Shown here piece after piece: positions 4,227 to 53,553 of a stretch of 64,000 nt of DNA. Made by a program: the position numbers and the translations under genes. This DNA is from an uncultured Dehalococcoidia bacterium (lineage in GTDB: Bacteria > Chloroflexota > Dehalococcoidia > Lucifugimonadales > UBA3495): NCBI GenBank assembly GCA_964502995.1, contig CAZCZB010000001.1:45854-109853 (forward strand). The letters run 5' to 3'. Under the pieces are notes generated by a model. It was not told where the DNA came from, made no database searches, and saw only the letters and a list, made by a program, of their open reading frames with translations. Positions within the stretch are counted from its first letter, which is position 1; the number at the start of each line of letters is the position of its first letter.

Positions 4227-4442
4227 CTAAACGACCCGCTGGAGCCGGCGCTCCATGAGCGCCCAGAACTTCGACTCGTCAGCAGCTTTGTTGGCCTCCG
4301 ACCACGCGGCGGACGTGTTCACGCTCTTGGCTCGATCAGTGAGATTTTTCTCTGTGTTGAACGCCAACGTCTTGCTCCGCACAACGTCCGCGACCGTCAT
4401 GTTGTCCTCGATCCAACGAATCATGTTGCTGATAGTGGCCAT
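4227..4442 (-). CDS. small hypothetical protein (71 aa)
   Basis: Starts at internal ATG 4442 (MATISNMIRWIEDN...), preceded by GCAAGGAGAUC from the hammerhead-a leader. The longer track ORF (to 4640) would run through the ribozyme. Confidence 0.55.
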   Translation of the reverse strand: MATISNMIRWIEDNMTVADVVRSKTLAFNTEKNLTDRAKSVNTSAAWSEANKAADESKFWALMERRLQRVV

Positions 4443-4475
4443 CGTGTGATCTCCTTGCGGGGCAGGTGTAGGAAT

Positions 4476-4528
4476 CCCGCGACCCGCCGGCTGGCGGGTT
4501 TCGCCGTCGCTACGGCTCATCAGGCGGG
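4476..4528 (-). ncRNA. hammerhead ribozyme, type I (copy a)
   Basis: Minus strand: CCCGC CUGAUGA GCCGU-AGCG-ACGGC GAA A-CCCGCC-AGCC-GGCGGG-U C^GCGGG. Full catalytic core. Predicted cleavage between 4481 and 4480. Confidence 0.85.
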
Positions 4529-4738
4529 CTGGCTGCAATGTTGGGTGTTGAAGCCGTGTACCTGGCACCAATCCCTTACCGGCGTACCGGTGGAGCTTTG
4601 GCACGGAACCTGCGGAGTCCCGAGGTTGGCCTTCCAGCACTTGGGGCAGTCCTGCTGGCTCCAGTACTCGACCGTCTTCGGCAGCGCTTTGCCCAGGGAC
4701 TCCCGAGCGCGGTCGATGAGGACCTGGGGCGCCCGCAT
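4520..4738 (-). CDS. small Cys-containing protein, probably 5'-truncated
   Basis: 72 aa from ATG 4738, ending ...HGFNTQHCSQPA with its UGA inside the hammerhead core. The frame stays open and protein-like up to 4876 (..FKKKYETILDLDYLEG M..) with no ATG, GTG or TTG. Confidence 0.5.
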   Translation of the reverse strand: MRAPQVLIDRARESLGKALPKTVEYWSQQDCPKCWKANLGTPQVPCQSSTGTPVRDWCQVHGFNTQHCSQPA

Positions 4739-5011
4739 CCCCTCCAGATAGTCCAGGTCGAGGATGGTCTCGTACTTCTTCTTGAACGGGGAGGAAATTT
4801 CGCTACTCCGGATCAGATGGACCAGTAGCTGAAAGCCGCCAATCCCGTGACGAATTGCGTCTCGGTGTTTCTGGAGTCAGCCGGCCTTTGGGAGTGAGCA
4901 AATCCTAGGCAGACCAGCACCGTGCAAAGTCGCGGAAATCAGGCAACTAAAGCAGGGAACTCCGGTACCTAGGAGTTTTCGTCGAAATTGGACTCGTGGT
5001 GACCACAATCG

Positions 5012-7480
5012 CTAGGTCACCAACTTGTCCCCCAAATGCCCCCGCAAAGAATCTGTGGCATCTTGAGCGTCCCACTTCAAACGAATAATTTTCTCCACGT
5101 CGTCGCTGATATGGGACACCTCATTGCGGTCGTCATGAACAGGTAACACTAGATCTCGCCACCGGTCTGCGAGATTGGGCAGAGTGGTGTCGGTAAATAC
5201 GTGCCCGCTCATTTGCGCCTGGACGAACTCTGAAGACAGCAACGCCAGCAAGTAAAACGGAGTGATGCCATGCCGGTTTTGAACATTGACGACTCGTATG
5301 GTCAGCAGTTCCCGAGTTAGCAGGACATTTTTGTCCCTGCTGGATGCCATTGCCACGGTTCCTATCCTGTAGCTTCCACGCCTCACCATGATGATGTCGC
5401 CTTCTTCCGGTAGGCGCTTGTTTTTGGTCATTCTGCAGAACGTATCAATAGGCACCAAGGACACCGGATTGCGGTACATCTCCCAATTCACGATGTCCTT
5501 CACCCGAATGTAGGGGATAGTCCCTTGTCCCTTAGCAGTCGCGGGCGGAGACCCGTGACCATCCCAGCACTGGATGACTCCTTTTTCTTCCAGTTGCCCC
5601 AAGGTGATCCCGGTCCGACCTGTCGGGACATTGACTGGTCGGGCTTTTTTCGAGAGGTAGTACGACGGAACCAACGCGTTGCGGTCAACGTCAGAGTAAG
5701 GGACCGTAAACGTGAACTGGTTACCAGGGTCACCCGGGTTGTGAAGTTCGCCCTTGACGACGGCGATGTCATCCCATATCTCGGCTGTTCCAGTCCTGTA
5801 CAAAGTTTTGCCGTTATGGTCATGCCCCATCTCTTCTGGCACTGCCATGACGATGGTGTCTTGCTGAGGCACGCCTTTCTCCAGCACCAACAGGCAGGTC
5901 TTGGCATTGCAGTAGGGCCGGAACGTGTTGTGTGGTAGCTGGACAACCGCTTTGAGGTTGTTGTTTTTCATAATGAATTGGCGGAGGTAGCCGAGCTGCT
6001 GACCGTGAAGCACTGTTTCAGGCAACACGATTGCCAGCGTACCTTCGTCCAGTAGCATGTCCAAGCATCGCTCAACGAACAGAACGTAAGGGTCTCGGGC
6101 GATTACCGACCGGGTCATCTGGTATTCACCACTCTGCTTTTCCAACTTCCACTTGTGCCCGAGTTCGAAATTCGCACAATCAGACGTGAGGACCTTAGTC
6201 TTTGTCCCAAATGGCGGGTTTGTCAGCACGAAGTTGAACCGCCGGAAATTGTTTCCAACGACGAACTTGGCTTTGGCTGGGTCCGTGAAATGATCAGCCT
6301 CGTGTAGCGAATTGTCGTGGACGACGTTGCTTTTGCCGTCGCCGGCAATGGACATGTGCGCTTTCGCGATTTTCACGAGATCCGATTCTTTGTCGATCCC
6401 GAACAAGGTACGTGCCGCCATGGATTTCTTGATACCTTCGAGTTGGGCTGAGCCCTTGTACCTAGGATCCTGATCCATTTCCCGCCAAATATGGTGCATC
6501 GCCTGAATGAGAAATCCACCAGACCCACAAGCTGGATCACATACCGTCTCGTTAGGTTTAGGTGCAGCGATCTCGACAGCCAACTCCACTACGTTCCTTG
6601 GCGTAAAGAATTCTCCTTTTTCGCCAACGAGACGCGACTCAGCGAAAACTTCAAAAGCGTCCCCCACAACATCGGTATCAGTGGACAGCAGGCTGCCTCT
6701 CTCGAGTTGACCCACGACCCAAGCGGTCGAACGTGCGTCCAGCGTGACTGTATCACCCTCCAGGAACACTCCGTCGCTCTGCAGGTCCTCCTTCACGCGT
6801 TCGAACAGACCGTCGATTCTCTGTTTTACATCTTCGGGGTCCTCACCAAACTGGACGCGAAAATCTGGCGGAAGACTCAAAAAACTCTTCTCATCTTCGA
6901 TCTTGCAAAAGATCAATTTGATCATTTCAGCGCCGAGCTTTTCGCGGCGACTGATGTTCGTGTTCGCATACAGATTATTCAGGATGCGGCGAAAAGCAGT
7001 GATGAGGTCGGCACGCTGGAATGGTGCCAACTCCGACTTTTTGATACGTCCAATGTCAGCAATCGTTTGTCCACGGGCAGGGATGTTGTAAAGGGAACCT
7101 TCCAACACCGCATTCTGGCTGACGTCCTTGAACAGGTACTCAATGTCGTTCCCGTTCGTCCAGACTGCCCAGACGGCCGATGTGGCGGTCATATACGATT
7201 TGAGCTGAGCTATCCCGTCGTCCCGCTCTGGCCTTTTGGTTTCGACAATTCCCCACACGTCCCGGGCAGGGTCACGCCCCGAGGCTGGCCTGTAGACCAC
7301 GATGTCAGCCTTGTCGGCGAAATAGCCTGATCCACGAGGAATCTGCACCTCAATGTCCAGTTCGCTCTTGCGATAGCCATAACTCTCGATCAGCACGCGC
7401 TCGTAATCTTGGCGCACCCGTTCTTCAGGCTTCGACAGGTCAATGGACTTGCCCGTCGCAAAGTCTTTCGATTTCGCCAT
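5012..7480 (-). CDS. single-chain type IIG-like restriction-modification enzyme (PD-(D/E)xK HSDR_N-like nuclease + N6-adenine methylase + target-recognition region)
   Basis: Motif I DPACGSGGFL and motif IV LTNPPFG. N-terminus YGYRKSELDIEVQIPRGSGYFADKADIVVY...GIVETKRP resembles the type I R-subunit N-terminal nuclease fold. Start placed at ATG 7480 (MAKSKDF); the track ORF extends to 7666. Confidence 0.8.
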   Translation of the reverse strand: MAKSKDFATGKSIDLSKPEERVRQDYERVLIESYGYRKSELDIEVQIPRGSGYFADKADIVVYRPASGRDPARDVWGIVETKRPERDDGIAQLKSYMTATSAVWAVWTNGNDIEYLFKDVSQNAVLEGSLYNIPARGQTIADIGRIKKSELAPFQRADLITAFRRILNNLYANTNISRREKLGAEMIKLIFCKIEDEKSFLSLPPDFRVQFGEDPEDVKQRIDGLFERVKEDLQSDGVFLEGDTVTLDARSTAWVVGQLERGSLLSTDTDVVGDAFEVFAESRLVGEKGEFFTPRNVVELAVEIAAPKPNETVCDPACGSGGFLIQAMHHIWREMDQDPRYKGSAQLEGIKKSMAARTLFGIDKESDLVKIAKAHMSIAGDGKSNVVHDNSLHEADHFTDPAKAKFVVGNNFRRFNFVLTNPPFGTKTKVLTSDCANFELGHKWKLEKQSGEYQMTRSVIARDPYVLFVERCLDMLLDEGTLAIVLPETVLHGQQLGYLRQFIMKNNNLKAVVQLPHNTFRPYCNAKTCLLVLEKGVPQQDTIVMAVPEEMGHDHNGKTLYRTGTAEIWDDIAVVKGELHNPGDPGNQFTFTVPYSDVDRNALVPSYYLSKKARPVNVPTGRTGITLGQLEEKGVIQCWDGHGSPPATAKGQGTIPYIRVKDIVNWEMYRNPVSLVPIDTFCRMTKNKRLPEEGDIIMVRRGSYRIGTVAMASSRDKNVLLTRELLTIRVVNVQNRHGITPFYLLALLSSEFVQAQMSGHVFTDTTLPNLADRWRDLVLPVHDDRNEVSHISDDVEKIIRLKWDAQDATDSLRGHLGDKLVT

Positions 7481-7686
7481 GATGCCACCCCCAACGCCGT
7501 CGACGTCGACAGCTCGTGGTTTCGCAGCAAGACCGAACCGCCTGCAGGCGCTGACAGTCCGTACCATGCGATGTGATGTTATCACAAAACTCTCGGCCCT
7601 TTGATGCAGACGAACGCTCCTACCGGGGTAGCGGGAGAAACAATAGAGTTCGTCCTCGTCGGCCAATCGGCGTTAATGTGCTTCAC

Positions 7687-9174
7687 CTACGCCGCCTGTT
7701 GAGCGGCGTTGAGTTCGTGGAGCACCAGCGCCGCCACGACGCCCGGCTCAACGCTCTGCTCTTCCCGACGCTTGGAACCTTTGGCAGGCGGCATCCTGAT
7801 CCTCATGTGCCGCATGTGGACGTAGTCGTCGGCCTTCAGGTGGGCCAGCGCCGTGGCCAAGTAGGTCAGCGTCGCCATCGCCACGTGCAGCGACACCTTC
7901 TGGATGTTCAGGTAGCGGTGGGTGTCCAGCAGCCTGCTGTGCTTGGCACTGCTGAAGTGCCGCTCGATGATCGGCCGCTTCTTGTACTCGGCCTTCCATT
8001 CGTCCGAACAGCGGGGCAGCAGGCCCACAATCCGCAACAGCCGACCCTCGGTCTTCTCGTAGTGGGCGTAATCGCAATGCCTCGTAAACTGCACGCTGTC
8101 CTTCAGGTGGCAACCCTCGGCGGGACACCCGAACAGGTGCCCCTGCTCTGGATCAGTCTCGACGTACTCCATGGACTTACCGCCCACGCAGGTCGGCCGG
8201 CCATCAGCGTCATAAATGCCGTCGTACCGCCGCTCGCCGGTTTCCTTGTCCTTCTCGGGCAGCCGGACCGCGATCACTGGCATCATGCCCACGTCGATGA
8301 CGTGCCGGATGTTGTCCAATTTGTCGTAGCCCTTGTCGCCCAGGAAGTAGTGCGGCCTCAGTTCGGGGTACAGGACCAAGCAGTCATCAAGGTCCTCGAC
8401 CATCACCGCCACGTCGCTGGCGTTGGCTGGACGGGTCCTGGCGAACATCGGCAATCCGTAGTTGGAGTCTGCGACGACATCAATCGAGTAGCCGAAGTAC
8501 AGCTCGTCCTTGCTGTCCTTCTGGCCCGACTCCGCGCTGTCGCCTTTGGGCTTGGACTTGCTCTTCTTGGAATTGCGGCCTTTGCGTCCCTTGCTGGAGC
8601 GGGCATTCTTGGCGGTGCGGTGTCCCCACTTGGCGTCCGTATCCTTGGACGGTATCTCGTCACCCGTCTTCCGGCTCTTGCGACTTGGCCGTGCCCACGC
8701 CTCAACGTCGGTGCTGTCGATGACCAGCGAGTGTCCCAGCGGCGGCTTATCGGCAGGGACGATGCCGGCTTCGCGCAGCCGTTCGATCTCGCCTCGGCAT
8801 TCAAGGAACACTTCGGCGATGATGGGATCGAAGGTGTCTCGATGCGCGGCCAGTTTCTTCTTGAATCGGCTGTAGGCCCCTTCACTGGGGGCGCATTCGA
8901 GGTCGCAGATGCCCAGCAGGCGGTCGTCGCTGCCCAAGCGGTTCAGGAAGCCGTTGGCGTAGCGCTCATTGAGCGCGAACTGCATCACGAAAGCAGCCAG
9001 CATGGGCAAAGCTGTGTAGCCTGGGTTTCCGCCGCGCTCGTGGGGCGCGTCCAAGGTCTCCGCCAGAGGGCCGGCACGGGATACTACACCCCCAACCACG
9101 CCTTCGAGGAAGCCGTAGCCGCTCTTGGGGGGTTGTTTAGGTAATGGTGTATGCTTAAAATAGCAGTCGCCCAC
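7687..9174 (-). CDS. IS4/IS5-superfamily DDE transposase (DUF772-like N-terminus)
   Basis: 495 aa. GNPGYTALPMLAAFVMQFALNERYANGFL resembles the DUF772 N-terminus. FLGDKGYD and YKKRPIIERHFSSAKH give the Y-2-R-3-E-6-K signature. I could not define the IS ends by eye. Confidence 0.85.
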   Translation of the reverse strand: MGDCYFKHTPLPKQPPKSGYGFLEGVVGGVVSRAGPLAETLDAPHERGGNPGYTALPMLAAFVMQFALNERYANGFLNRLGSDDRLLGICDLECAPSEGAYSRFKKKLAAHRDTFDPIIAEVFLECRGEIERLREAGIVPADKPPLGHSLVIDSTDVEAWARPSRKSRKTGDEIPSKDTDAKWGHRTAKNARSSKGRKGRNSKKSKSKPKGDSAESGQKDSKDELYFGYSIDVVADSNYGLPMFARTRPANASDVAVMVEDLDDCLVLYPELRPHYFLGDKGYDKLDNIRHVIDVGMMPVIAVRLPEKDKETGERRYDGIYDADGRPTCVGGKSMEYVETDPEQGHLFGCPAEGCHLKDSVQFTRHCDYAHYEKTEGRLLRIVGLLPRCSDEWKAEYKKRPIIERHFSSAKHSRLLDTHRYLNIQKVSLHVAMATLTYLATALAHLKADDYVHMRHMRIRMPPAKGSKRREEQSVEPGVVAALVLHELNAAQQAA

Positions 9175-9683
9175 AACGATTTTTCTCGGTCCGCGGGGGC
9201 ACCAGGCCGCTTGGTTTGTGAGAGATCCAAGCGGTCAAAATTATGTTCTATTTTGACTGGTGACATTATACCCGGAGGCCCTTCCTGCCTCAACCGAAAA
9301 CAGGGGGTTCGGGCCGTTTTTGAGTACAAAAAGTGCTCATTTCGAGCAGGGTAGGGCGATTGCGCAACGGCCCGGCCGGGCGTTCCTAGGGCGCAGTTAA
9401 GGCCCCGAGTGCACCCTGATTTTTGCCCCAGCGAAAAATGGATGCCCCAGGGCGTCCGTAGACGGCCCGTATTGGCCGTTCCGGGATTCCATGCGGTATT
9501 ATTCGACGGAGTCGGAAAAATCGCTCAGGGGCCGGATATGGCGATTTTCGGGGGCATTTTCGACGGTGCGCCCGGGGCGATTTCGGGACGCCGGCAGGGG
9601 CCGGCAATCAGCGGTTACCCGGAAAAATCGGGTCTGTGGCGGATTACGAAAAGCGTCGCTTCGCTGGATGATATACGTCCCGG

Positions 9684-9803
9684 TCAGCTCGGGGGCGGAG
9701 TAGCGAAATTTCCTCTGAACGGGTTGAACTTCTTGACCAGCCTGGTGGCCTCGTGGCCGCAGCGGTGAAGCACGACCGTGCTGGCTTGGCTTTTGGTGGT
9801 CAT
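9684..9803 (-). CDS. short ORF (39 codons) behind hammerhead-b leader; possibly the 5' remnant of a disrupted gene
   Basis: My translation: MTTKSQASTVVLHRCGHEATRLVKKFNPFRGNFATPPPS*. Good SD (GCAAGGAGAGAGACC AUG). Followed by ~500 nt with no convincing ORF. Confidence 0.3.
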   Translation of the reverse strand: MTTKSQASTVVLHRCGHEATRLVKKFNPFRGNFATPPPS

Positions 9804-9835
9804 GGTCTCTCTCCTTGCAGGGTTGGTGTAGGTAT

Positions 9836-9891
9836 CCCGCGACGGCCCGTAGGTTGGGGCCGTTTCGCCGTCTCACGGCTCATCAGGCAGG
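9836..9891 (-). ncRNA. hammerhead ribozyme, type I (copy b)
   Basis: CCUGC CUGAUGA GCCGU-GAG-ACGGC GAA A-CGGCCC-CAACCUAC-GGGCCG-U C^GCGGG. Predicted cleavage between 9841 and 9840. Confidence 0.85.
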
Positions 9892-10092
9892 CTGGTTCTC
9901 GGAGTTTGCCAAGCAGTCTTCGCAGTTCACCATGTAGCCTGCCGAGCTGTAGACCACGTAGTGCTCTCCCGCCATAGTGGACTGGCCCATGGCATAGTGG
10001 CGGGTCGTGACCTCGGCCAAACAGGCGGGCCGGGAGCTACCAACGCACTCTGTCAAATGGAAGGTAGCGCGCTTCTCGAACTTCTCAAACAT
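9883..10092 (-). CDS. small Cys-containing hypothetical protein
   Basis: 69 aa ending ...SENQPA, with its UGA being core nucleotides U4-G5-A6 of hammerhead b. SD AAGGAGAGAGACC before ATG 10092. Confidence 0.55.
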   Translation of the reverse strand: MFEKFEKRATFHLTECVGSSRPACLAEVTTRHYAMGQSTMAGEHYVVYSSAGYMVNCEDCLANSENQPA

Positions 10093-10134
10093 GGTCTCTC
10101 TCCTTGCCTTGTGAACTAGCGTTCTGATACGATA

Positions 10135-10162
10135 ACGATAGCAGACCGACCAGTGGTGTAAA
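10135..10162 (-). promoter_or_regulatory. candidate promoter TTTACA-N16-TATCGT (TGC extended -10)
   Basis: Minus strand: CCCCTTTACACCACTGGTCGGTCTGCTATCGT. Nearly identical copy at 18145-18172. Confidence 0.4.
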
Positions 10163-10367
10163 GGGGTTTGCGGAAAATGCGAACCGTGGCATTGGGACGC
10201 CGGCCAGCGAGCGCATCGGACGCCCTGGGCTGCTACGGCGGTAAGACCGTCTGCAAAAAAACCAGTTCAGGATAGGTAGGAAGCGGGGGTTCTGTAACAT
10301 TTGCGGGGTAGTTCCCTGTTCTAAAAACTCGTGCTGGGATTTGGCGGTTTTAGAACGCTACCCCCCC

Positions 10368-10397
10368 TTGACAGGGTGTATCCGTAGGGTGTATCCT
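10368..10397 (+). promoter_or_regulatory. candidate promoter TTGACA-N18-TATCCT overlapped by a tandem direct repeat GGGTGTATCC x2
   Basis: TTGACA at 10368-10373 and TATCCT at 10392-10397. The spacer and -10 consist of GGGTGTATCC-gta-GGGTGTATCC. Confidence 0.45.
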
Positions 10398-10427
10398 ATG
10401 GGTACATCAAAAACGGAGGAACCCAAA

Positions 10428-10928
10428 ATGGCCACCACCGTCAACGGCTACGAGATAAAACCTGGCGCAGACCTGCGCCATGCGTGCCTGACCGGCGCGG
10501 ACCTGTACCGCGCGGACCTGTACCGCGCGGACCTGTACCGCGCGAACTTGCGCGGCGCGGACCTGATCGGCGCAGACCTGCGCCATGCGTGCCTGACCGG
10601 CGCGGACCTGTACGGCGCGGACCTGTACCGCGCGACCCTGCGCCATGCGGACCTGTACGGCGCGAACTTGCGCGGCGCGAACCTGTACGGCGCGAACCTG
10701 TACGGCGCGAACCTGACCTGCGCGGACCTGATCGGCGCGGACCTGCGCCGTGCGTGCACCGGCGCGAACCTGCGCCATGCGGACCTGACCGGCGCGGACC
10801 TGCGCCGCGCGGACCTGTACGGCGCGGACCTGACCGGCGCGGACCTGACCGGCGCGAACCTGTACCGCGCGGACCTGTACGGCGCGACCCTGCCCTCTGG
10901 ATGGCACGCAGTCAGCTGCTGGTACTGA
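10428..10928 (+). CDS. pentapeptide-repeat protein
   Basis: 166 aa from ATG 10428 (RBS GGAGGA). Nearly the whole length is A(D/N)L(Y/R/I/T)(G/R/C) pentads (ADLYR ADLYR ANLRG ADLIG...). Built from near-identical 15-nt DNA units. Confidence 0.85.
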   Translation: MATTVNGYEIKPGADLRHACLTGADLYRADLYRADLYRANLRGADLIGADLRHACLTGADLYGADLYRATLRHADLYGANLRGANLYGANLYGANLTCADLIGADLRRACTGANLRHADLTGADLRRADLYGADLTGADLTGANLYRADLYGATLPSGWHAVSCWY

Positions 10929-12324: not shown

Positions 12325-13602
12325 CTATTCCAAACCTGGCCTAATCTGCGTTATCTGACCTAATCTCTCGATTGGCGATCCACAGGCAGGCACAGTGTTG
12401 GTTGACGCTTCACCGACCACCGCCGGCGTAGCCGGACTTACACAGTCTCCACGTCCTGACACCGGGAAGCTCGAACCCGGCCATTGTTCCAAATTCAGCG
12501 CGGCGTTCGCGTCACGCTCGACCAGCGCACCACATCCGCCGCAATACCACTGCCGATCAGAGAGCGTCATCTCTGCGTTGTGCCATCCGCAGTGAGCGCA
12601 CAGCCTGGACGAAGGGAACCATCGATCCGCCTTCTCAAAGTGGGCGCCGTACCAGGCGCACTTGTACTCCAGTTTGACCAGGAACCCGGCCATCCCAGCA
12701 TCGGCGATGGCCCGCGCCAGTCGCCGGTTCCGCATCATGCCAGCCACGTTCAGCGTCTCCACCACCACCCGGCCCGCCGACTTGGCTATCGCCGTCGTCG
12801 CCTTGTGGTGGTTGTCATTCCGAACGTTGACTATCCTGGCGTGCAGCCGCCGTCGTTTCGCGTACAGACACTCGCGCCGGTTGGAGCGATTGCTCTTGCC
12901 GTGGACGTTCCGGCTGCGGGCGATGGCTTTGTCAAGCCGGCGCAACTGCTTGAGGCCGCTGGCCAGCGCCTTTGGATTGGCCACCCTGGTACCGTCCGAG
13001 CACTCGGCCATCGTACCAACGCCGACATCGACACCGGTGGTCCGTCCATCCTTGACCGGCGGCGGTTGTTCACCGTCCTCGATGCAGAACGCGGCGAACC
13101 ACGTCCCCGCCGTGCGATTGATCGTTACCTCGCGGATCGAGCCGGGAAAGCGCAGAGCCTCCACCATGTCCACCCGGCCTATCTTCGGGAGGACCACCGC
13201 CTTGCCGTCCACGCGCACGGTGTCGGGACCGTTGTCGGCTCGGAATCCTTGTTCGTGCCGCCGCCGCTTGAAACGCGGGAACCCAACGCGCCGTCCTGGG
13301 CGCTGGCCAGCCTTCACCGCCTTGCGGTACGCCCCCCAACCCGCCGCGGCCTGGCCGAAGTCGATGATGGCGTATTTCGCAGCGTTCTGAGACAGCGGCG
13401 CGGACCATGGGGCGATCATCCCCTTGACCTTGTTCCAACGCGGCCGCAACGTGCGCTCGGACAGCCACTCGCCAACGTCCAGTCCAGCCTTGAACTCGCC
13501 CACCGCCCAGTTGTAGGCGAACCTGGCATAGCCGGCGTGCTGAGCCAGGACGGACTCCTGCTCCCGCGTAGGCTTCAACGCTATCCGGTGTGCTCGCTTC
13601 AT
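12325..13602 (-). CDS. tnpB: TnpB (OrfB) RNA-guided-endonuclease-type transposon protein
   Basis: 425 aa. N-terminal MKRAHRIALKPTREQESVLAQHAGYARFAYNWAV and a C-terminal zinc ribbon CAHCGWHN...WYCGGCGALVERDANAALNL. Confidence 0.9.
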   Translation of the reverse strand: MKRAHRIALKPTREQESVLAQHAGYARFAYNWAVGEFKAGLDVGEWLSERTLRPRWNKVKGMIAPWSAPLSQNAAKYAIIDFGQAAAGWGAYRKAVKAGQRPGRRVGFPRFKRRRHEQGFRADNGPDTVRVDGKAVVLPKIGRVDMVEALRFPGSIREVTINRTAGTWFAAFCIEDGEQPPPVKDGRTTGVDVGVGTMAECSDGTRVANPKALASGLKQLRRLDKAIARSRNVHGKSNRSNRRECLYAKRRRLHARIVNVRNDNHHKATTAIAKSAGRVVVETLNVAGMMRNRRLARAIADAGMAGFLVKLEYKCAWYGAHFEKADRWFPSSRLCAHCGWHNAEMTLSDRQWYCGGCGALVERDANAALNLEQWPGSSFPVSGRGDCVSPATPAVVGEASTNTVPACGSPIERLGQITQIRPGLE

Positions 13603-19239: not shown

Positions 19240-19298
19240 CCCGCGACCCGCCGGTCCTGACCGGCAGGTTTCGCTGTCGATACAGCTCATCAGGCGGA
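19240..19298 (-). ncRNA. hammerhead ribozyme, type I (copy d)
   Basis: UCCGC CUGAUGA GCUGU-AUCG-ACAGC GAA A-CCUGCCGG-UCAGGA-CCGGCGGG-U C^GCGGG. Stem II is compensatory relative to copies a-c. Predicted cleavage between 19245 and 19244. Confidence 0.85.
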
Positions 19299-33913: not shown

Positions 33914-35941
33914 TCATTCCGTAGGTTGGGCGTCAGACAGCGTGGCCCGGACGAGCGCGGCCGCCAGATGGACGGGAACCGCGTTGCCGATTTGCTTCGT
34001 GACCTCGCTGATGTTGCCCACGAACTCGTACTGCGACTCCTCGTCGTCAAACCCCATGGCCCGGGCCAGCTCGGCGTTCTCCAGCATCCTGAACCGGATG
34101 TCCAGCAGGTGAGGCTGGCCGTCCACGAAAACGATGCGCCTGGGGTCGATGCCGGCTTCGACGGCCTCGCGGGCGATGTCCTCCGCGATGGTGGGCGTAA
34201 CCAGGTTGCCCGCCCCTCGACTGGTGACTTTGGGCAGCGGGTCGGACACGTCATGCACCCTCGGCTCCTGACCGGAAGCCTCGCCGAAGTTGGGCACGAT
34301 GTAGGACTGCGCCACCGGAACCGTCAGCGTCAAATCTCCCTTGGTGGTCATGGTGGGCAGTGGGCTATCCAGCGGCCGGCTATAGTCGCCGCTGCGTCCC
34401 GTCTGACTGATCCGGGCCACGATGGGTTGCGCCAACCCCAGCCCCGGCGAGGTGGTGATAGAACCCAACGGCTTATCCACCGAGTGGACACGGCGGTCGT
34501 CGCCCTTCTCCCCCTGGCTGCCGTTGCCGTGGGCCAGTTTGATCACGGCGGGGTTGGCCAGCCCATGACGCGCCTTCGTGGTAACCGTGTGCAGGGGATC
34601 GTCGATGCTGGCGGCATCGCTGTTGCCGTAGTATTCGACGATAACCGGACTGACGACGGCGTGTTTACGGCAGCCGGTGATCGCCGACAGCGGGTGAGCC
34701 GTGTCCTGGGCGAAGCTCTGGCCGTAATACTGGATGATGGTCGGGCGTACCAGCGAGATCTTGCCCGCCGTGGCGATGGTAGGGGTCGGCTCCTCGGTCG
34801 ATCTTGGCGCTCCGGCGCTCTGCTGGCCCAGCATGAAGGGCCGCAGGTCCGGCTCGACGAGAATGCTGCCGCCGCCGTGGGCCGTGGTGATACAGGGAAC
34901 CGGCTCATCGACACCCTTGGGGGCATTGTCGGTCCGGTTCGCGTTCAGGAACGGTTCGGCGTCGGTGTTCACCAGGTAGCCGCCGCCCTGGCAGGTGACG
35001 GTTGGGAACGGATCATCGATTGAATGGAAGCGGCCGGTCCCGTTCTCGCCGTGGCGATTCAGGATGAACGCCTGCGCCGGCAGATCGGCGGGATCCGCGC
35101 CGATCTCGTCTTCCAGGTCCAATAGCCGGATGTAGAGCGGGGCCAGCGGACCGCCGAAATGCTGGAGGCCCTTGGCGATGCGCCGGCGCGTCTTGGGGCT
35201 GAGCGGACGCTTCCGGTACTTGGGGTCGTCCAGCAGGGAGCGTCCCAGGTTCTCCCAGTTGATGATCTCCTTGGCCCCGCGCCAGGGTTGCCGCCCCGGG
35301 AACATCCCCGTGTCGCCCCTGGCATGGGACGGCTCGGGCCAAACCGTCGGCCTGCCGTCCTTCCGGGCCAGCAGAAAGAACCGGGTGCGCGTGGTCGCGT
35401 CGCCGTAGTCGGCGGCGTTGAGCATCTTCCACTCGGCGGTGTAGCCCAGGGCGTGGAAGGTCAGGAACCAGGCTTCAAAATGCTTGCCGCGCTGGGACTT
35501 ATCGGGCCGTCCACTTTCGTCGAGAGGCCCCCAATTCACGAACTCCGGCACGTTCTCTATGATGACGCAGCGGACATCGAGCTTGGTGAGCCAATTGTGG
35601 ATCGCCCAGGGGTTCATCCTGCCCTGGTCGTGAATGGGCTTGCCGCCCCGTGCGCGGGAGTAGAACCGGCACTCCGGGCTGGCCATCAGCAGGTCCAGCC
35701 GGCCCCCCGGTACGACGGCCTCGGGATCCACGATGCTGACGTCCTCCACCAGGTGCCTGGCCGTGGGATGGTTGGCCTGGTGTGTGGCGATAGCGGTGTT
35801 CCAGTGGTTGATTGCCACCAGGTCCATGGCGCTGCCGAGGTCCTCTATGGCGTGTTGGGCGCCGGTCGAGGAACCGCCGGCTCCACAGAAGAGGTCGGCG
35901 ACGAGGAACGTACTCTGCAAATCTATGGTGGATGCTTTCAC
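33914..35941 (-). CDS. DNA (cytosine-5) methyltransferase with an expanded, 8-fold repeated target-recognition region
   Basis: GTG start. Motif I DLFCGAGGSS, PC-type motif IV ASPECRFYS, VIIENVPEF, TTRTRFFLLA and motif X GNAVPV. Between VIII and IX there are eight D-x-P-x-x-[TS]-[IV]-T units. Confidence 0.9.
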   Translation of the reverse strand: MKASTIDLQSTFLVADLFCGAGGSSTGAQHAIEDLGSAMDLVAINHWNTAIATHQANHPTARHLVEDVSIVDPEAVVPGGRLDLLMASPECRFYSRARGGKPIHDQGRMNPWAIHNWLTKLDVRCVIIENVPEFVNWGPLDESGRPDKSQRGKHFEAWFLTFHALGYTAEWKMLNAADYGDATTRTRFFLLARKDGRPTVWPEPSHARGDTGMFPGRQPWRGAKEIINWENLGRSLLDDPKYRKRPLSPKTRRRIAKGLQHFGGPLAPLYIRLLDLEDEIGADPADLPAQAFILNRHGENGTGRFHSIDDPFPTVTCQGGGYLVNTDAEPFLNANRTDNAPKGVDEPVPCITTAHGGGSILVEPDLRPFMLGQQSAGAPRSTEEPTPTIATAGKISLVRPTIIQYYGQSFAQDTAHPLSAITGCRKHAVVSPVIVEYYGNSDAASIDDPLHTVTTKARHGLANPAVIKLAHGNGSQGEKGDDRRVHSVDKPLGSITTSPGLGLAQPIVARISQTGRSGDYSRPLDSPLPTMTTKGDLTLTVPVAQSYIVPNFGEASGQEPRVHDVSDPLPKVTSRGAGNLVTPTIAEDIAREAVEAGIDPRRIVFVDGQPHLLDIRFRMLENAELARAMGFDDEESQYEFVGNISEVTKQIGNAVPVHLAAALVRATLSDAQPTE

Positions 35942-38182: not shown

Positions 38183-39739
38183 TCACCTGTCTTCTGTATC
38201 CTCGTAGACCAGCGGCATTGGTAGGTTGGTCGCTTCCAGGTTGCGGCGGGCCAACGCGAGATAATCGGGGTTGAGGTCCAGGCCAACGGAACGCCGGCCC
38301 AGGCGTTGGGCGACGATGCTGGTGGTGCCCCGGCCGACGAAACAGTCCAGGACGGTGGCGGGCACGGTATCGGCGCCGCACTCGCAGGTGGGCCGCCACT
38401 GGTCGGTAGATACCATCGTTGGTTTCCACCCCGTGCTATCGGTTTTCGTTGGGCAATTCCCAGGAACATGGGCGGGCTCACGTTGATTGACGTGTCCGGT
38501 TTTCTCCGCCACGCGGACCCAGGGGTTGCCGCATTGGGCGCAGACGCCGCGCTCGCTGGTGCCGGCCAGGATGCACAGCTCAGGCAGGCGGTCGGGGAAC
38601 GAGGCGTAGTGCGTGTCCTTCCTCCCCTGCGTCGGGATCACCCACCAGTTGCGAAGGTTGGCGCTGCCGATTAGGCCGTTCGACATTGCAGACGTAAAAC
38701 CCTCATTGGCTCTAACCATGCCCGGCTCACCGACTTTGTTTTTCGACGAGGTGTTGGGGTTTTTACCAAATCGTTCTATCGTGCTATTGGCGTACGGCTG
38801 CCGGACAGCCTCAGCGTCATAGAAATAGCGGGCCTGCTTCGTCAGGTGGAACACGTACTCCACCCCCGACGTGGTGCGGTCGTTGACCGACTCCGGCATG
38901 GGGTTGGGCTTGATCCAGTGGTTGGTCTGCCGCGCGATCCAGCCGGGCGTTTCCACCGCGACGCCGTGGCTGCCCAGGCATTCGGGGCAGATAAGCCGGC
39001 CGTCGGGCCAGCGTCCGTATCTGCTCTGATGATGCGTCGCCTCGCACTCGCGGCAGGTGAGCCACGGCTGCTGCAACGCCAGCGCCACGCGGTGGGGCTG
39101 GAACACCAGGTTTTTGGCGGCCAACCCTTCCACCGGCATGTTGCCGCCACCCCAACGTCCGCTGCCCTCTCCGCGCGCAACCCGCTTCCCACGTACCACG
39201 GGGATGTTCAGGGTGCCCCGATTGGTCTTCTGTTTCTCACCGTCCGAGTGCGTCCCGTCCGCGTTCATGCCCTTGCCGCTGCCCGCGTAGGCGTCGCCCA
39301 AGTTGAGCCAGACGCTGCCGTCGTCGCGGAGCACGCGGCGGACCTCGCGCAGCACGGCGACGATGTTGGCCAGCCATTCCTCCAGGGACGGCTCCAGGCC
39401 GATGCCGGCCGATTGCTGGTGGGCACCGCAGTGTCCGCACACTCCGTTGGGCCAGTGTTCGGGAGCATCCCCGCCGTAACTCGCGGTCGTGTCCAGTCGG
39501 TCCGGCCAATCCCGCTGCTGCTGGTGGTCCCGAGCGTGTCGTATGTGGTCGCAGTGCGGGTCCCCGCCTTCCCACGTCGCCAGCCCGTAATCCCTGAGCG
39601 ACCAGTAAGGCGGTGATGTCACAACGCAGTGGACGGACTGGTCTGGGAGCGGGAGGTAGCGGGCATCGCCCTTCCGCAGCTCGACCAGGCCATTGCTCCA
39701 AACCACACTATCCGCTTGGGCTATCGGGTATTCAGGCAT
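38183..39739 (-). CDS. beta-class N4-cytosine/N6-adenine DNA methyltransferase with zinc-ribbon insert
   Basis: Motif IV VVTSPPYW is N-terminal and motif I VLDCFVGRGTTS is C-terminal (beta order). Inserted CRECEA...CPEC. Start placed at ATG 39739. Confidence 0.85.
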   Translation of the reverse strand: MPEYPIAQADSVVWSNGLVELRKGDARYLPLPDQSVHCVVTSPPYWSLRDYGLATWEGGDPHCDHIRHARDHQQQRDWPDRLDTTASYGGDAPEHWPNGVCGHCGAHQQSAGIGLEPSLEEWLANIVAVLREVRRVLRDDGSVWLNLGDAYAGSGKGMNADGTHSDGEKQKTNRGTLNIPVVRGKRVARGEGSGRWGGGNMPVEGLAAKNLVFQPHRVALALQQPWLTCRECEATHHQSRYGRWPDGRLICPECLGSHGVAVETPGWIARQTNHWIKPNPMPESVNDRTTSGVEYVFHLTKQARYFYDAEAVRQPYANSTIERFGKNPNTSSKNKVGEPGMVRANEGFTSAMSNGLIGSANLRNWWVIPTQGRKDTHYASFPDRLPELCILAGTSERGVCAQCGNPWVRVAEKTGHVNQREPAHVPGNCPTKTDSTGWKPTMVSTDQWRPTCECGADTVPATVLDCFVGRGTTSIVAQRLGRRSVGLDLNPDYLALARRNLEATNLPMPLVYEDTEDR

Positions 39740-40130
39740 AACGGTCAATCCATCGCCATTGCCACCAGGCTTCGTTGATGACCAACTCGGCCCAGAGGTC
39801 GTTTTTGTATCCATTCCACATTTGCAAGTCGCGGATCGCGGGGTCGTCGCTGTACTTCGTCAACATCCAATCACGGCCACAAAAGCGGGAGCGTGCGTCC
39901 TCAGCCATTTCCCGATCCAACCGTTGCTGCCAACGGAGAAATCGGGGGCTGGCTTCGTGGCCGGCTATCCAATCGCCCTCGGCGACGGACGCGCCGCACT
40001 TACGGCACCGCCAGCGGGGAGCCGTGCGATACTCGGTCATGTAGCGCTCGCGGTGTCCATTGCCGCACCGCGGTTTGTCAGGCGACGGCGGACCGAGCCA
40101 TGCGGGGCTAACACAGATGGCGGATGTCAT
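39732..40130 (-). CDS. hypothetical protein
   Basis: 132-aa ORF with start/stop overlaps on both sides. Confidence 0.5.
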   Translation of the reverse strand: MTSAICVSPAWLGPPSPDKPRCGNGHRERYMTEYRTAPRWRCRKCGASVAEGDWIAGHEASPRFLRWQQRLDREMAEDARSRFCGRDWMLTKYSDDPAIRDLQMWNGYKNDLWAELVINEAWWQWRWIDRYA

Positions 40131-50792: not shown

Positions 50793-51899
50793 ATGCCACT
50801 TGAAGAAAGCATCCACTCCCTCGCTGCACGACTGCCCGACGTCCTGTCTCTGATAGAAACCGAGGAGGGCACCAAGAACGCCCTGGTGCTCCCCTTCATC
50901 GCGGCGCTGGGCTACAACCCATTCGACCCGAATGAAGTCATACCTGAGTACGTCGCCGACGTGGGGATCCGGCGCGGCGAAAGGGTTGACTTTGCCTTGA
51001 TGCGGGACAGAGAGCCTATCATCCTCTTTGAGTGCAAGGCAGCTAACGTCAACTTGGGCGATAGCCACATATCGCAACTGTTTCGCTACTTCACCACCAC
51101 GCCGGTCCGCATCGGCGTGCTCACCAACGGCGTCGTTTATCGGTTCTTTTCGGACCTGGACAAAGCCAACACCATGGACCAGCAGCCTTTTCTCGAAGTC
51201 AACCTGGCGGAGTTGGACGATGCAACGGTCGCTGTACTGCACCGTTTCGCCAAAGGTTCCTTTGACGCGGAACGGACCATCGAGGCAGCCCTCGATCTGA
51301 AATACACCAACTCAATCCAACAGGTGCTGGCCGAAGAGTTCGCCAACCCGTCCGGCGAGTTGGTCCGAATGATAGCGCGGCGGGTCCATGGCAGCAGCGT
51401 ACCACAGGCAGTAATCAAGAGATTCGAGGCGTTGGTCAAGGACGCATTTGCTCGGTTCATCAACAAAAGAACCGAAGCCCGTCCTCAGTCCGGTCCCGAA
51501 CCGGACGGGTCGGGGACATCCACAGAAGAGGCTATTGCACAACACCGCCCGAACCCGGCGCCCGTGGAGCTTCCCATTGACTTGTTTATGGAACCGGGCG
51601 TCGGTATGTATTCGAGGGCGCGACTGGAGGACGATGGCTTTACCGTTGTCGTGCTTGCCGGGTCAGCGATTTGCGCGCACGAAAGGCGGACAGCTGGACT
51701 CGTCGTTTCCGAACAAAGAAGAGACGCCCTGGAGCGGGCCACATGGGTTGAAGATGGCGAACACTATCAACTGACGCAAGACTACAGATGCACATCGCCT
51801 ACCAACGCGGCCACTTTCGTCTTGGGGTGGCACGCCAATGGTCGTCAATGGTGGACAGATGCAGACGGCAGAAAGCTGGCCCAAATCCTGAACGGCTGA
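50793..51899 (+). CDS. restriction-endonuclease-like (HSDR_N-type PD-(D/E)xK) protein with C-terminal DUF4357-like domain
   Basis: EEGTKNALVLPFIAALGY...VDFALMRDREPIILFECKAANVNL...QLFRYF matches the type I R N-terminal fold. The C-terminal FTVVVLAGS...TSPTNAATFVLGWHANGRQWWTDADGRKL resembles DUF4357. Confidence 0.65.
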   Translation: MPLEESIHSLAARLPDVLSLIETEEGTKNALVLPFIAALGYNPFDPNEVIPEYVADVGIRRGERVDFALMRDREPIILFECKAANVNLGDSHISQLFRYFTTTPVRIGVLTNGVVYRFFSDLDKANTMDQQPFLEVNLAELDDATVAVLHRFAKGSFDAERTIEAALDLKYTNSIQQVLAEEFANPSGELVRMIARRVHGSSVPQAVIKRFEALVKDAFARFINKRTEARPQSGPEPDGSGTSTEEAIAQHRPNPAPVELPIDLFMEPGVGMYSRARLEDDGFTVVVLAGSAICAHERRTAGLVVSEQRRDALERATWVEDGEHYQLTQDYRCTSPTNAATFVLGWHANGRQWWTDADGRKLAQILNG

Positions 51900-51928: not shown

Positions 51929-52405
51929 TTGACGACAAGGGAGACTACTTTGAAAACTAGGACCACTTTGCTTGCCGCCTTTGCGGTGGTCGTCGCCATC
52001 GTTGGGGCGTGGTTCTCTGCCGGCGCGAGCGTCTCCGCGCACCAGCCTGACGTTTATCAGATTGATCAGAGCAATGCACCTGATCCCCCCTGCACCTTCT
52101 ACCACGACGATGCCTGTGAAATCGCCGCTACCCCAGGAAGTTTGACTATCTCTGAGTCGAACTGGGCCGGGCAATCCCATGGACTCGATACCCAACTCAG
52201 CGCCGCGCAAGCGCACTTTCAGAACCTTACCGGCTTCGCCGAACTAAAGGGGCAGGTGAACGACCACATCGTGCCAAGCGTCACCCGCTTACTTGTCGCA
52301 AGCGGCGGGACCGATACTTCGAGCGGAGATGTGAGCTACGCCATAACCTCAGACATCACCGGCCTGCCGTGGATCGCGGAGGCGGAGTACCAGGTACTGC
52401 CTTAG
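51929..52405 (+). CDS. secreted hypothetical protein
   Basis: 158 aa. Signal-like TLLAAFAVVVAIVGAWFSAGASVSA. Confidence 0.5.
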   Translation: MTTRETTLKTRTTLLAAFAVVVAIVGAWFSAGASVSAHQPDVYQIDQSNAPDPPCTFYHDDACEIAATPGSLTISESNWAGQSHGLDTQLSAAQAHFQNLTGFAELKGQVNDHIVPSVTRLLVASGGTDTSSGDVSYAITSDITGLPWIAEAEYQVLP

Positions 52406-52425
52406 GTCAGACCGACATCAACCCC

Positions 52426-53553
52426 ATGGCCGGCCAGATAACACAACGCAAGCCCGGCGTCTGGAAGCTCGTCGTCAACCTCGGCCGCGATACCCAGGGC
52501 ATCCGCCGGCGCCGCGCCTTCACCGTTCACGGCACCCGCCGCGACGCCGAGCGACGCCTGCGTGAAATCCTGACCGACCTTGACCGCGGCGTCGCTCCGC
52601 CGGAACACATCACCTTGGCCGAGTGGCTCGACCGTTGGATGCGGGAGGTCATCGTCCCTCAGCGGAGTGTGGCCACCGCCGAGCGGTACGAGGGCATCAT
52701 CCGCAAGTACATTGGCCCAGCCCTCGGCCATCACGAATTGGCCCGACTATCGCCCCTGCGGATCAAGCGGTTCCAGGACGAGATGCTCGATGACGGCCTG
52801 TCGCCCTCGTCAGTGGGCCTGATGCACATCATCATTTCGGGGGCCTACCGCTACGCCATGATGCTGGAGGTAGTCCAGCGCAACCCCGCGTCGGCGGTGC
52901 CGGGCCCACCCCGCGTTCGGGGCGCAATCGACGTACCCGAGGTCGAATACGTTCAGGCGATGCTGGACCTGGCCGAACGCGAAAAGCACCTGTTGTTCCC
53001 CATGATCCACGCCATCGCCTACACCGGAATGCGCCGGGGCGAGGCCATCGCGCTGACGTGGGACGACGTCGACCTGGACAACGGCTATTTGGAGATAACC
53101 CGTTCGGCGGGCTGGCGACGGGCCGGGCTGGTCATCTCGTCGCCCAAGACTGCCGCCGGCGCCCGCATGGTGGACCTGGACCCGAGGACGATTGAGGTGC
53201 TGCTGGACCACCGGAAGTGGCAGGCCGCTTACATCGCGGACCATGCCGGCTACTACGACAACCGGGGCATATTGTTCGCTGACGAAAAAGGCGGCTATAT
53301 CAAGCCCAACCGGGTGTCGCGGACTATTGGGGACCTTGGTCGGAAGGTCGGCCACCCCCGAATGACGACCCACTCCCTGCGCCACTTCCACGTGACGATG
53401 CTGTTGCAATCGGGGTTCCACGAGGCCATCGTCGCCCAGCGCGCCGGCCACGCCAATTCCTCAATCACCCGGACGGTGTACGCCCACGCACTGCCCGGCT
53501 GGCAACGCGAAGCGGCGGAAGCCTTCGGTAAGGCTATGGAGCGTGGAGCGTGA
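52426..53553 (+). CDS. int: tyrosine integrase
   Basis: Start at ATG 52426 (MAGQITQRKPGVWKLVVNLG). AYTGMRRGEAIALTWDDVD (Arg I), HSLRHFHVT (H-x-x-R) and RTVYAH (Tyr). Confidence 0.9.
   Translation: MAGQITQRKPGVWKLVVNLGRDTQGIRRRRAFTVHGTRRDAERRLREILTDLDRGVAPPEHITLAEWLDRWMREVIVPQRSVATAERYEGIIRKYIGPALGHHELARLSPLRIKRFQDEMLDDGLSPSSVGLMHIIISGAYRYAMMLEVVQRNPASAVPGPPRVRGAIDVPEVEYVQAMLDLAEREKHLLFPMIHAIAYTGMRRGEAIALTWDDVDLDNGYLEITRSAGWRRAGLVISSPKTAAGARMVDLDPRTIEVLLDHRKWQAAYIADHAGYYDNRGILFADEKGGYIKPNRVSRTIGDLGRKVGHPRMTTHSLRHFHVTMLLQSGFHEAIVAQRAGHANSSITRTVYAHALPGWQREAAEAFGKAMERGA

Follow-up and report, generated by a model that had tools for sequence, protein, structure and literature searches.

Introduction

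Transporter insertion sequences (tIS) and mobile insertion cassettes (MICs) are elements derived from insertion sequences (ISs) that carry passenger genes, with or without a transposase of their own (ISfinder; IS231/MIC231); the Tn3-like TnXax1 is a further case in which MICs occur. Restriction-modification (RM) units with inverted repeats (IRs), 8-bp duplications and empty sites have been described in Xanthomonas oryzae and Neisseria gonorrhoeae (Furuta, Abe & Kobayashi 2010, PMC2853133), the N. gonorrhoeae unit comprising a truncated Type IIG homologue and a transposase-like gene. The carriage of defence genes as cargo on Tn7-like transposons has been documented at scale (Benler et al. 2021, PMC8649781). 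Here we describe an element from a 64,000-nucleotide stretch (hereafter the window) of contig CAZCZB010000001.1, assembly GCA_964502995.1, from an uncultured Dehalococcoidia bacterium of the Chloroflexota. The element, at window positions 4791-9715, pairs an IS1182-like transposase with a gene for an 822-aa Type IIG-like protein and has split a gene of an integrated prophage. We consider it very probable that this is a tIS, an IS1182-like module with the 822-aa protein as its passenger, which moved into the prophage from the Chloroflexota host genome.

Because RM units with IRs and 8-bp duplications are known, the individual element is of an already known kind. It resembles those units in having an RM gene inside IRs, an 8-bp duplication and the empty site of a relative as proof of insertion. 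Unlike them, it has an intact transposase and a full-length Type IIG-like gene, its ends are those of a multi-copy IS family with many other cargoes, and its target is a gene of an integrated prophage. The family recalls tIS and MICs in that the same IR pair is found on autonomous copies and on transposase-less cassettes of 0.8-3.4 kb with target duplications, but differs in that none of nine elements compared (see below) is a minimal copy, the passenger slot is fixed directly after the transposase stop codon and most annotated cargoes are defence genes. Like the Tn7-like elements, it is a family of transposons with variable cargo in which defence systems are abundant; those, however, are multi-protein elements with target selectors, whereas here a single-gene DDE IS shows no evident target preference.

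Boundaries, target duplication and empty site

A sequence-only reading of the window had pictured an AT-richer island at 4739-9835 that had split one phage gene. The longest inverted repeat in 4400-10100 is a perfect one of 20/20 positions, GAGGAAATTTCGCTACTCCG, with arms at 4791-4810 and 9696-9715. No further copy of this 20-mer with up to three mismatches was found in the window, and shuffled sequences never produced one (0 chance matches expected). Both arms are directly flanked by TGAACGGG, the left copy of an 8-bp target duplication lying at 4783-4790 and the right copy at 9716-9723. The element therefore spans 4,925 bp, plus the duplication, and is read on the minus strand, from its left, transposase-proximal IR (9696..9715) to a right-end module (4791..4842) that includes the right IR. 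The final 52 nt, which make up this module, resemble the ends of IR-bounded elements in L012, L015 and L023 (85%). IS ends and a target duplication, for which the earlier reading had proposed a search, are thus present, and they bracket the transposase and the RM gene together.

Deletion of 4791-9723 joins 9803..9724 in frame to 4790..4520, giving a 116-aa open reading frame (ORF) whose codons at the joint read aac ccg ttc a/ag aag. A search with the reconstructed protein retrieved five homologues (P0001-P0005). Four of them, P0001-P0004 (73-88% identity), run uninterrupted across the joint, as ..RLVKK[F/Y]NPFKKKYETILDLDYLE.., and are encoded on phage-like contigs, one from a sponge metagenome, that have a downstream RadC gene in common with the window. 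The two fragments proposed earlier do, then, belong to one ORF. As it now stands, the 5' fragment (9724..9803, minus strand) continues into terminal sequence of the IS as far as a stop codon at 9684. The 39-codon ORF at 9684..9803 is real and as first described. The 3' fragment occupies 4520..4790, minus strand; its frame is indeed open back to 4876 with no start before 4738, the upstream part, 4791-4876, being right-end sequence of the IS.

Island-free relatives were also found, in related sponge-metagenome phages. In L033, window 9816..9716 aligns with positions 1417-1516 and window 4790..4617 with 1509-1682, and the overlap of the two flank alignments in the subject is exactly the 8 duplicated bases. 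The same holds for all four empty sites, L033-L036, each of which has the RadC neighbour and a single copy of TGAACGGG; this overlap is the classical empty-site proof of insertion. The insertion of about 4.8 kb proposed by the sequence-only reading is accordingly sound as to the split, its size being corrected to 4,925 bp with an 8-bp duplication.

These data establish one DDE-type unit with IRs and a target duplication, inserted together with both of its genes. A DDE_Tnp_1 domain, IRs, a short duplication and an empty site in relatives mark it as a DDE insertion sequence. A simple IS would hold no passenger gene and measure under ~2.5 kb; this element has an 822-aa RM gene inside its IRs and a total length of 4,925 bp, and is therefore classed as a tIS or unit transposon.

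The recipient is a prophage, as the earlier reading had it. The window encodes a tyrosine integrase (52369..53553) and, beyond ~55 kb, host metabolic genes (CoA-transferases, an FMN dehydrogenase, an aminotransferase), which show the prophage to be integrated; there is also synteny with phage contigs bearing terminase, portal and capsid genes. Since the products of the metabolic genes fall into clusters of 90% or higher identity together with proteins from Chloroflexota/Dehalococcoidia metagenome-assembled genomes (MAGs), the host falls in the group in which the IS ends occur. From the arrangement of these genes, the end of the prophage and its attachment site should lie around 53.6-55 kb. No tRNA genes were found in the window.

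The passenger protein

The cargo segment (4843..7679, minus strand; GC content 0.53) consists of an upstream region of ~200 nt, the RM gene and a tail of ~170 nt. Its DNA is homologous to solitary chromosomal copies of the gene in L040 (86%, window 7485..4993) and L039 (78%, window 7597..5012). The gene itself lies at 5012..7480, minus strand, its true start being the ATG at 7480 rather than the TTG at 7666. A length of 822 aa is also found in its four closest homologues; all close homologues have 818-822 aa, and nearly all of 120 among the matches listed have 813-830 aa. Comparison with the chromosomal homologue in L040 (90% amino acid identity) gives a dN/dS of 0.08.

The sequence-only reading had described a complete single-chain nuclease-methylase-specificity protein, and domain, motif and fold comparisons uphold that description, the specificity part being a putative one. 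Pfam recognizes HSDR_N_2 (residues 80-185 of the long ORF, E 5.6e-16), N6_Mtase (E 2.9e-39), Eco57I (E 2e-13) and, weakly, MmeI_Mtase. In a 57-sequence alignment D59 and E80 of the PD-(D/E)xK nuclease site (PD...ExK) are invariant and K82 nearly so, and methylase motif I, DPACGSGGF (D315-P-A-x-G-S-G), and motif IV, NPP(F) (N421-P-P), are both invariant. The chain thus combines, by sequence, the PD-(D/E)xK nuclease domain and the gamma-class N6-adenine methylase motifs I and IV by which Type IIG enzymes are recognized. The C-terminal, putative specificity region finds no match in Pfam Methylase_S and is unusually conserved across the family; apart from the transposase gene, the element holds no other gene.

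An AlphaFold2 model of the protein has a mean predicted local distance difference test score (pLDDT) of 83, rising to ~90 in the C-terminal ~260 aa. Foldseek places it first with the RM subunit of the Type IIB enzyme BsaXI (E 1e-22), which is the best PDB match by sequence too, and next with the Type IIG enzyme BpuSI, which aligns along its entire length (E 6e-19); CamA, a methylase solved with its cognate substrate DNA, was also matched. As in BpuSI (PDB 3S1S) and RM.BsaXI (PDB 8W0P), nuclease, gamma-class N6-adenine methylase and, putatively, a specificity domain follow one another in that order in one chain; unlike in those enzymes, the specificity domain is conserved and the activity is a predicted one, and identity to them is 13-22%. 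BsaXI, moreover, requires a separate S subunit. Assignment to Type IIB (the BsaXI/BcgI kind) was rejected, the element having no S gene and the protein room for one C-terminal domain only. Membership of a MADS system was likewise rejected: the best NCBIfam match is indeed the MADS methylase MAD2, but its 320 bits are less than half of the 720-bit cut-off, the element holds only two genes and the close homologues are solitary. As judged from sequence and model, the protein has the intact architecture of a single-chain Type IIG-like enzyme, the unusual conservation of its C-terminal domain being a caveat. By the same evidence, the protein would be expected to both methylate and cut DNA, with a specificity of its own, and so to protect.

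A side observation concerns the homologues. In the 3.6-Mb chromosome L039 (8001-15150), the 822-aa homologue sits between ftsH and gcvT, and the two gcvP subunit genes are separated by a pair of genes for a HindIII-like endonuclease and methylase; RM genes seem to accumulate in the glycine-cleavage operon of this genome.

The transposase and its leader

The core module of the IS, made up of IR, leader and transposase (7680..9715, minus strand), has 76% nucleotide homology to L055/L056; this begins at the IR and breaks off at window 7680, 7 nt beyond the transposase stop codon. The transposase (7687..9174, minus strand) has 495 aa and a GTG start. It contains Pfam DDE_Tnp_1 (PF01609; E 9.9e-14, 52 bits against a cut-off of 23), and its best curated match is the IS1182 model (NCBIfam NF033551), aligned at 94.3 bits over profile positions 46-487 of 488. 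As this score is below the curated cut-off of 270, the protein is filed as IS1182-like and not as a member. The IS4/IS5-type transposase of the earlier reading is therefore right for the broad DDE_Tnp_1 class and needs correcting as to the closest family. At E<=1e-20 there are 230 homologues; in 34 aligned homologues, the signature Y397-x2-R400-x3-E404-x6-K411 and the acidic D, D and E columns are conserved. This signature, the DDE_Tnp_1 domain and the whole-profile alignment are shared with the IS1182 family and the IS5/IS4 class, as are terminal IRs that begin with GAG and target duplications whose length varies (8-11 bp). Apart from the score of 94 as against 270 bits, the difference from IS1182 lies in size, 4.9-7.2 kb versus under 2 kb, the cargo accounting for the extra length. 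When viral and metagenome contigs were searched with the transposase, as a single sequence or as the 34-sequence alignment, the result was nothing or only proteins of 24-29% identity. For that reason the family survey given below was built on a genome scan and exact-protein look-ups.

Between the left IR and the transposase lies a non-coding leader of 520 nt (9175-9695). Among relatives, the distal part of this leader varies and the proximal ~190 nt show strong conservation. The earlier description of ~500 nt without ORFs fits this leader as conserved non-coding sequence, but not literally, since mechanical ORFs exist in other frames. The best promoter match in 4400-10000 lies within it, a sigma-70-type TTGAGG-17-TATAAT for the transposase (9265..9293, minus strand; 10/12 match), in which TTGAG and TATAAT are invariant in six relatives. 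Just upstream is a terminator-like hairpin with a T-run (9334..9348, minus strand), its sequence also conserved in relatives, which probably insulates the transposase from read-through transcription. Downstream, the 5' untranslated region (UTR; 9175..9262, minus strand) is predicted to be structured, with a conserved hairpin (GACCGC..GCGGTC) and pairing over the GTG start. RNAalifold applied to eight relatives yields 17 pairs in this UTR, four of them with compensatory changes, all four contributed by the most divergent copy, L061. No known RNA was found in the leader by Rfam, run on the whole window at the gathering threshold and on 4300-10400 at E<=1.

A role of the leader as guide RNA in the manner of IS110/IS1111 was considered and rejected. 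The transposase is of DDE type, the conserved parts of the leader are the hairpin and T-run, the promoter and the start-masking UTR, and the duplicated targets of the family (TGAACGGG, CCTCGGGC, AAAGTAGA, GTATTTAAC and GCAATTGAC) have no motif in common.

Weighing the explanations

The boundaries, the duplication and the empty site are established, as are the domains and predicted folds of the two proteins and the modular kinship to other elements; all accord with the movement of a tIS from the Chloroflexota host genome into the prophage. Several points weigh against this account. The transposase falls short of the IS1182 family cut-off. A second copy of the exact element, which could be the donor, was not found, and this prophage site is the only one from which a 100%-identical transposase is known. 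The RM homologues of highest identity (85-90%) are chromosomal, each a solitary gene on a Chloroflexota contig with no transposase nearby. Finally, public annotation names the protein family 'N-6 DNA methylase', the nuclease activity being predicted from sequence and structural model, and the strong conservation of the specificity domain is atypical of Type IIG enzymes, with their diversifying specificities.

The last two points bear most directly on an alternative in which the 822-aa protein does not function as a restriction enzyme by itself. It would then be a methyltransferase only (an orphan, epigenetic or anti-restriction one, of benefit to the prophage) or a stray part of some larger system, for example MADS, and the element would carry no working defence module. 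The public name and the conserved specificity domain suit this alternative, and so do the MAD2 match, the best PADLOC matches, which are to 'MTase_I' and 'MTase_II' with Type IIG profiles much weaker, and the presence of other DNA methylases in the prophage, at 33914..35941 and 38183..39814. On the other hand, the MAD2 score is far under its cut-off and the element lacks any other mad gene; the nuclease residues D59 and E80 are invariant and K82 nearly so in the 57 sequences; BpuSI and the RM subunit of BsaXI can be aligned to the predicted fold along its whole length; and the close homologues are solitary, from which it follows that the protein works alone. On balance we regard this alternative as unlikely, and a Type IIG-like passenger as the better description.

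Composition has a bearing on how the two genes came together. In 500-nt sliding windows with a 100-nt step, GC content drops from ~0.62 to 0.51-0.55 at ~4750-7250 and is again 0.59-0.63 from 7250 on. The mean of cargo-internal windows is 0.532, as against 0.618 +/- 0.031 outside the element, where only 0.3% of windows are as low as the cargo mean. In the transposase half (7687-9715) the mean, 0.61, equals the background. At the level of genes, the RM ORF has a GC content of 0.537 and a third-position GC content (GC3) of 0.635; the transposase ORF has 0.624 and 0.81, the GC3 of four neighbouring phage ORFs being 0.77-0.90. The spot counts of the sequence-only reading were exact (46.7% at 6901-6960, 66.7% at 13021-13080), but its AT-richer island shrinks to the RM cargo, the transposase part having background GC and host composition.

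The difference between the halves, 0.62 versus 0.53, might suggest two separate arrivals, with the IS landing beside an RM gene already carried by the phage as a 'moron' or the RM gene inserting into a resident IS of the prophage; nested cassettes do exist inside relatives, as in L047. However, neither part is present in the empty sites and the 8-bp duplication encloses the two together, no IR-like sequence (up to seven mismatches, in a sensible position) was found between the transposase and the RM gene, and the differing composition is equally expected if the cargo was captured before entry into the phage. Separate arrival is thus very improbable. A chimeric joining of host IS and RM sequence into a phage contig during assembly is hardly credible: the contig is metagenome-assembled and IS elements are a frequent cause of mis-joins, but the duplication is perfect and the reading frame restored, and the identical 4,925 bp with identical flanks (100% identity) recur in two independent Logan assemblies from other runs (SRR22586461, SRR8304783), for which reason a chimera is excluded.

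Relatives sharing the ends

The 20-nt end GAGGAAATTTCGCTACTCCG is found in 31 stretches of 185,579 representative genomes, 30 of the 31 labelled as Dehalococcoidia MAGs; it was not found in IMG/VR viral contigs. Eight further distinct transposase-bearing elements were compared with that of the window, their transposases being 71-80% identical where measured. What follows the transposase stop codon differs from element to element, and in six of the eight defence-type genes come directly after it: Type IIG, Druantia, PDC-M33/GmrSD-like, Dsr1-like or a methylase pair. Both ends are known only for the window element, L047 and L058-60; in the other relatives the membership of genes in the cargo is inferred from position, the right ends of L055 and L057 lying beyond the DNA covered.

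One element is present in three copies, L058, L059 and L060. It is 7,235 bp long and 99.9-100% identical in three contexts within one sample, two of them on chromosomal contigs and the third on a circular contig of 94 kb; the target duplications measure 11, 9 and 9 bp. Its cargo consists of ORFs of 614 and 558 aa, which both match one Type IIG profile, and a T5orf172/PDC-S57-like gene lies in the leader. L061, in which no IR was found, has a 1,175-aa enzyme of MmeI/Eco57I type. The closest transposase (80%) is that of L055. There, the left IR was found, and the transposase is followed by DruM, a nicking-endonuclease-like protein, DruF, DruL and DruE (E down to 9e-270); this complete-looking Druantia system, in which the nicking-endonuclease-like protein is HhH-GPD, begins 400 nt after the transposase stop (L055, 2474-10073). 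In L057 the left IR was found, with PDC-M33A/B/C and a GmrSD_N/HEC-05-like gene as cargo. L001 has Dsr1-like ORFs, with a left IR and no right IR found, and L006 an N6_N4 methylase and a 202-aa ORF, with a left IR found and the right IR uncertain. L047 is 6.55 kb long with the 8-bp duplication AAAGTAGA, and holds two unannotated ORFs and a nested IR-bounded cassette of 1.2 kb (8870-10061) encoding a Cas12f/TnpB-like protein. Only unannotated genes follow the transposase in L014, where the left IR and no right IR was found. A minimal copy, IR-transposase-IR, was not found among L001, L006, L014, L047, L055, L057, L058-60 and L061.

Pairs of ends also enclose cassettes of 0.8-3.4 kb that lack a transposase, many with duplications of 8-10 bp. 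Examples are those of L019 (1,689 bp, CCTCGGGC) and L012/L023 (3.4 kb, ATAGCATCAC). Most cassette ORFs have no Pfam match; one encodes a PaREP1/HEPN-like protein. L009 (231-1930) shows two IR-bounded cassettes in tandem, of 1,182 and 508 bp and 10 nt apart, and the same AAGTTGAAA-like sequence at all three junctions suggests that one target site was used repeatedly.

The family ends and the transposase module are common to elements that moved recently. A broader interpretation, which we offer tentatively, is that they represent an undescribed family of single-transposase IS1182-like transposons of Chloroflexota (Dehalococcoidia, many of them sponge or marine), specialised as a shuttle for anti-phage genes. 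The fixed slot after the transposase stop may have been filled independently with three different Type IIG enzymes, a complete Druantia system, PDC-M33 with a GmrSD-like gene, Dsr1-like genes and a methylase pair. The transposase-less cassettes may be mobilised in trans, with movement among chromosome, plasmid-like circles and prophages.

A possible mechanism

The transposase, which is presumed active, would bind both IRs, and staggered target cuts 8 (to 11) bp apart would give rise to the duplication; at this site insertion, by cut-and-paste or copy-in DDE chemistry, would have duplicated the 8 bp of TGAACGGG. The passenger occupies a slot extending from a few nucleotides after the transposase stop to the conserved 52-nt right end. 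The terminator-like hairpin and the start-masking UTR may keep expression of the transposase low and independent of the phage operon. A terminator, an own promoter and start masking are the usual devices by which ISs achieve low, context-independent transposase expression. As to the consequences for the phage, insertion would have inactivated the split ORF, and the hairpin is possibly polar on the phage transcript. More speculatively, read-out from the element might be re-processed at the downstream hammerhead-like motif described in the next section.

The RM enzyme is predicted to methylate the DNA of the lysogen, including the prophage, and to cut incoming unmodified phage DNA. It may in this way protect the lysogen, and hence the prophage and the IS, against other phages, so that retention of IS and prophage would be favoured. 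RM genes are in addition known to resist loss through post-segregational killing (PMC2853133).

The split gene and its prophage surroundings

The split 116-aa ORF is zinc-ribbon-like and is located between two hammerhead-like motifs. Cores of the form CTGATGAG..CGAAAC occur three times in the window (4498-4523, 9862-9886 and 19268-19293, all minus strand), where 0.03 would be expected by chance. Motif 'b' (9830..9890, minus strand; core 9862-9886) is followed by a leader, a Shine-Dalgarno sequence and the ATG at 9803. The motif downstream of the split gene (4476..4528, minus strand; core 4498-4523) contains the TGA stop codon of that gene within CUGAUGAG. Both island-side cores overlap the stop codon of the upstream gene, so that the upstream proteins end in ..QPA*, and each is followed by a similar leader, Shine-Dalgarno sequence and ATG (families D1 and D2). 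At the gathering score Rfam misses all three; the motif at 4476..4528 matches HH9 at 20 bits (E 0.28), under that score, and motif 'b' has no match at the gathering threshold or at E<=1.

The last 27 aa of the split gene product, CQSSTGTPVRDWCQVHGFNTQHCSQPA (window 4520-4600, minus strand), are missing from P0001-P0004 and almost identical in the distant homologue P0005 (~43-48% identical). From these comparisons, the C-terminus looks like a nucleotide-level module joined upstream of the hammerhead rather than a protein feature.

Elsewhere in the window, a second mobile element is represented by a TnpB of 425 aa (OrfB_IS605, Cas12f1-like TNB and helix-turn-helix domains; 12325..13602, minus strand), in a locally GC-rich stretch. 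A gene for a pentapeptide-repeat protein (ADLYRADLYGANL...) lies at 10341..10928 on the plus strand. A blastn search of GenBank phages with the right flank of the element returned only pentapeptide-repeat matches (Ralstonia, Caulobacter and Rhizobium phages) and no related phage. Other products of the prophage itself are a C5 cytosine methylase, an N6_N4 methylase with a further methyltransferase domain fused to it and a nuclease-like protein of HSDR_N/DUF4357 type (33914..35941, 38183..39814 and 50793..51899).

Significance

The locus provides a fully delimited case, with ends, duplication and empty site, of an RM gene, and thus a putative defence gene, entering a prophage by transposition. 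In uncultured sponge and marine Chloroflexota, this is one concrete way for prophages to gain defence genes as 'morons'. A full-text literature search on ISs, DDE transposases and cargo together with Druantia found no paper mentioning Druantia, which hints that the family pattern may be unreported.

That pattern, a slot biased towards defence genes, the cassettes and recent copies at several sites, is a lead of moderate interest and the part most worth following up. A one-gene DDE element appears here to carry defence systems as large as Druantia. If the pattern holds at the level of the family, the 20-nt end would be a sequence handle for mining defence genes among unannotated cargoes, and small IS-type transposons would join Tn7-like elements, integrons, satellites and integrative and conjugative elements as vehicles of defence.

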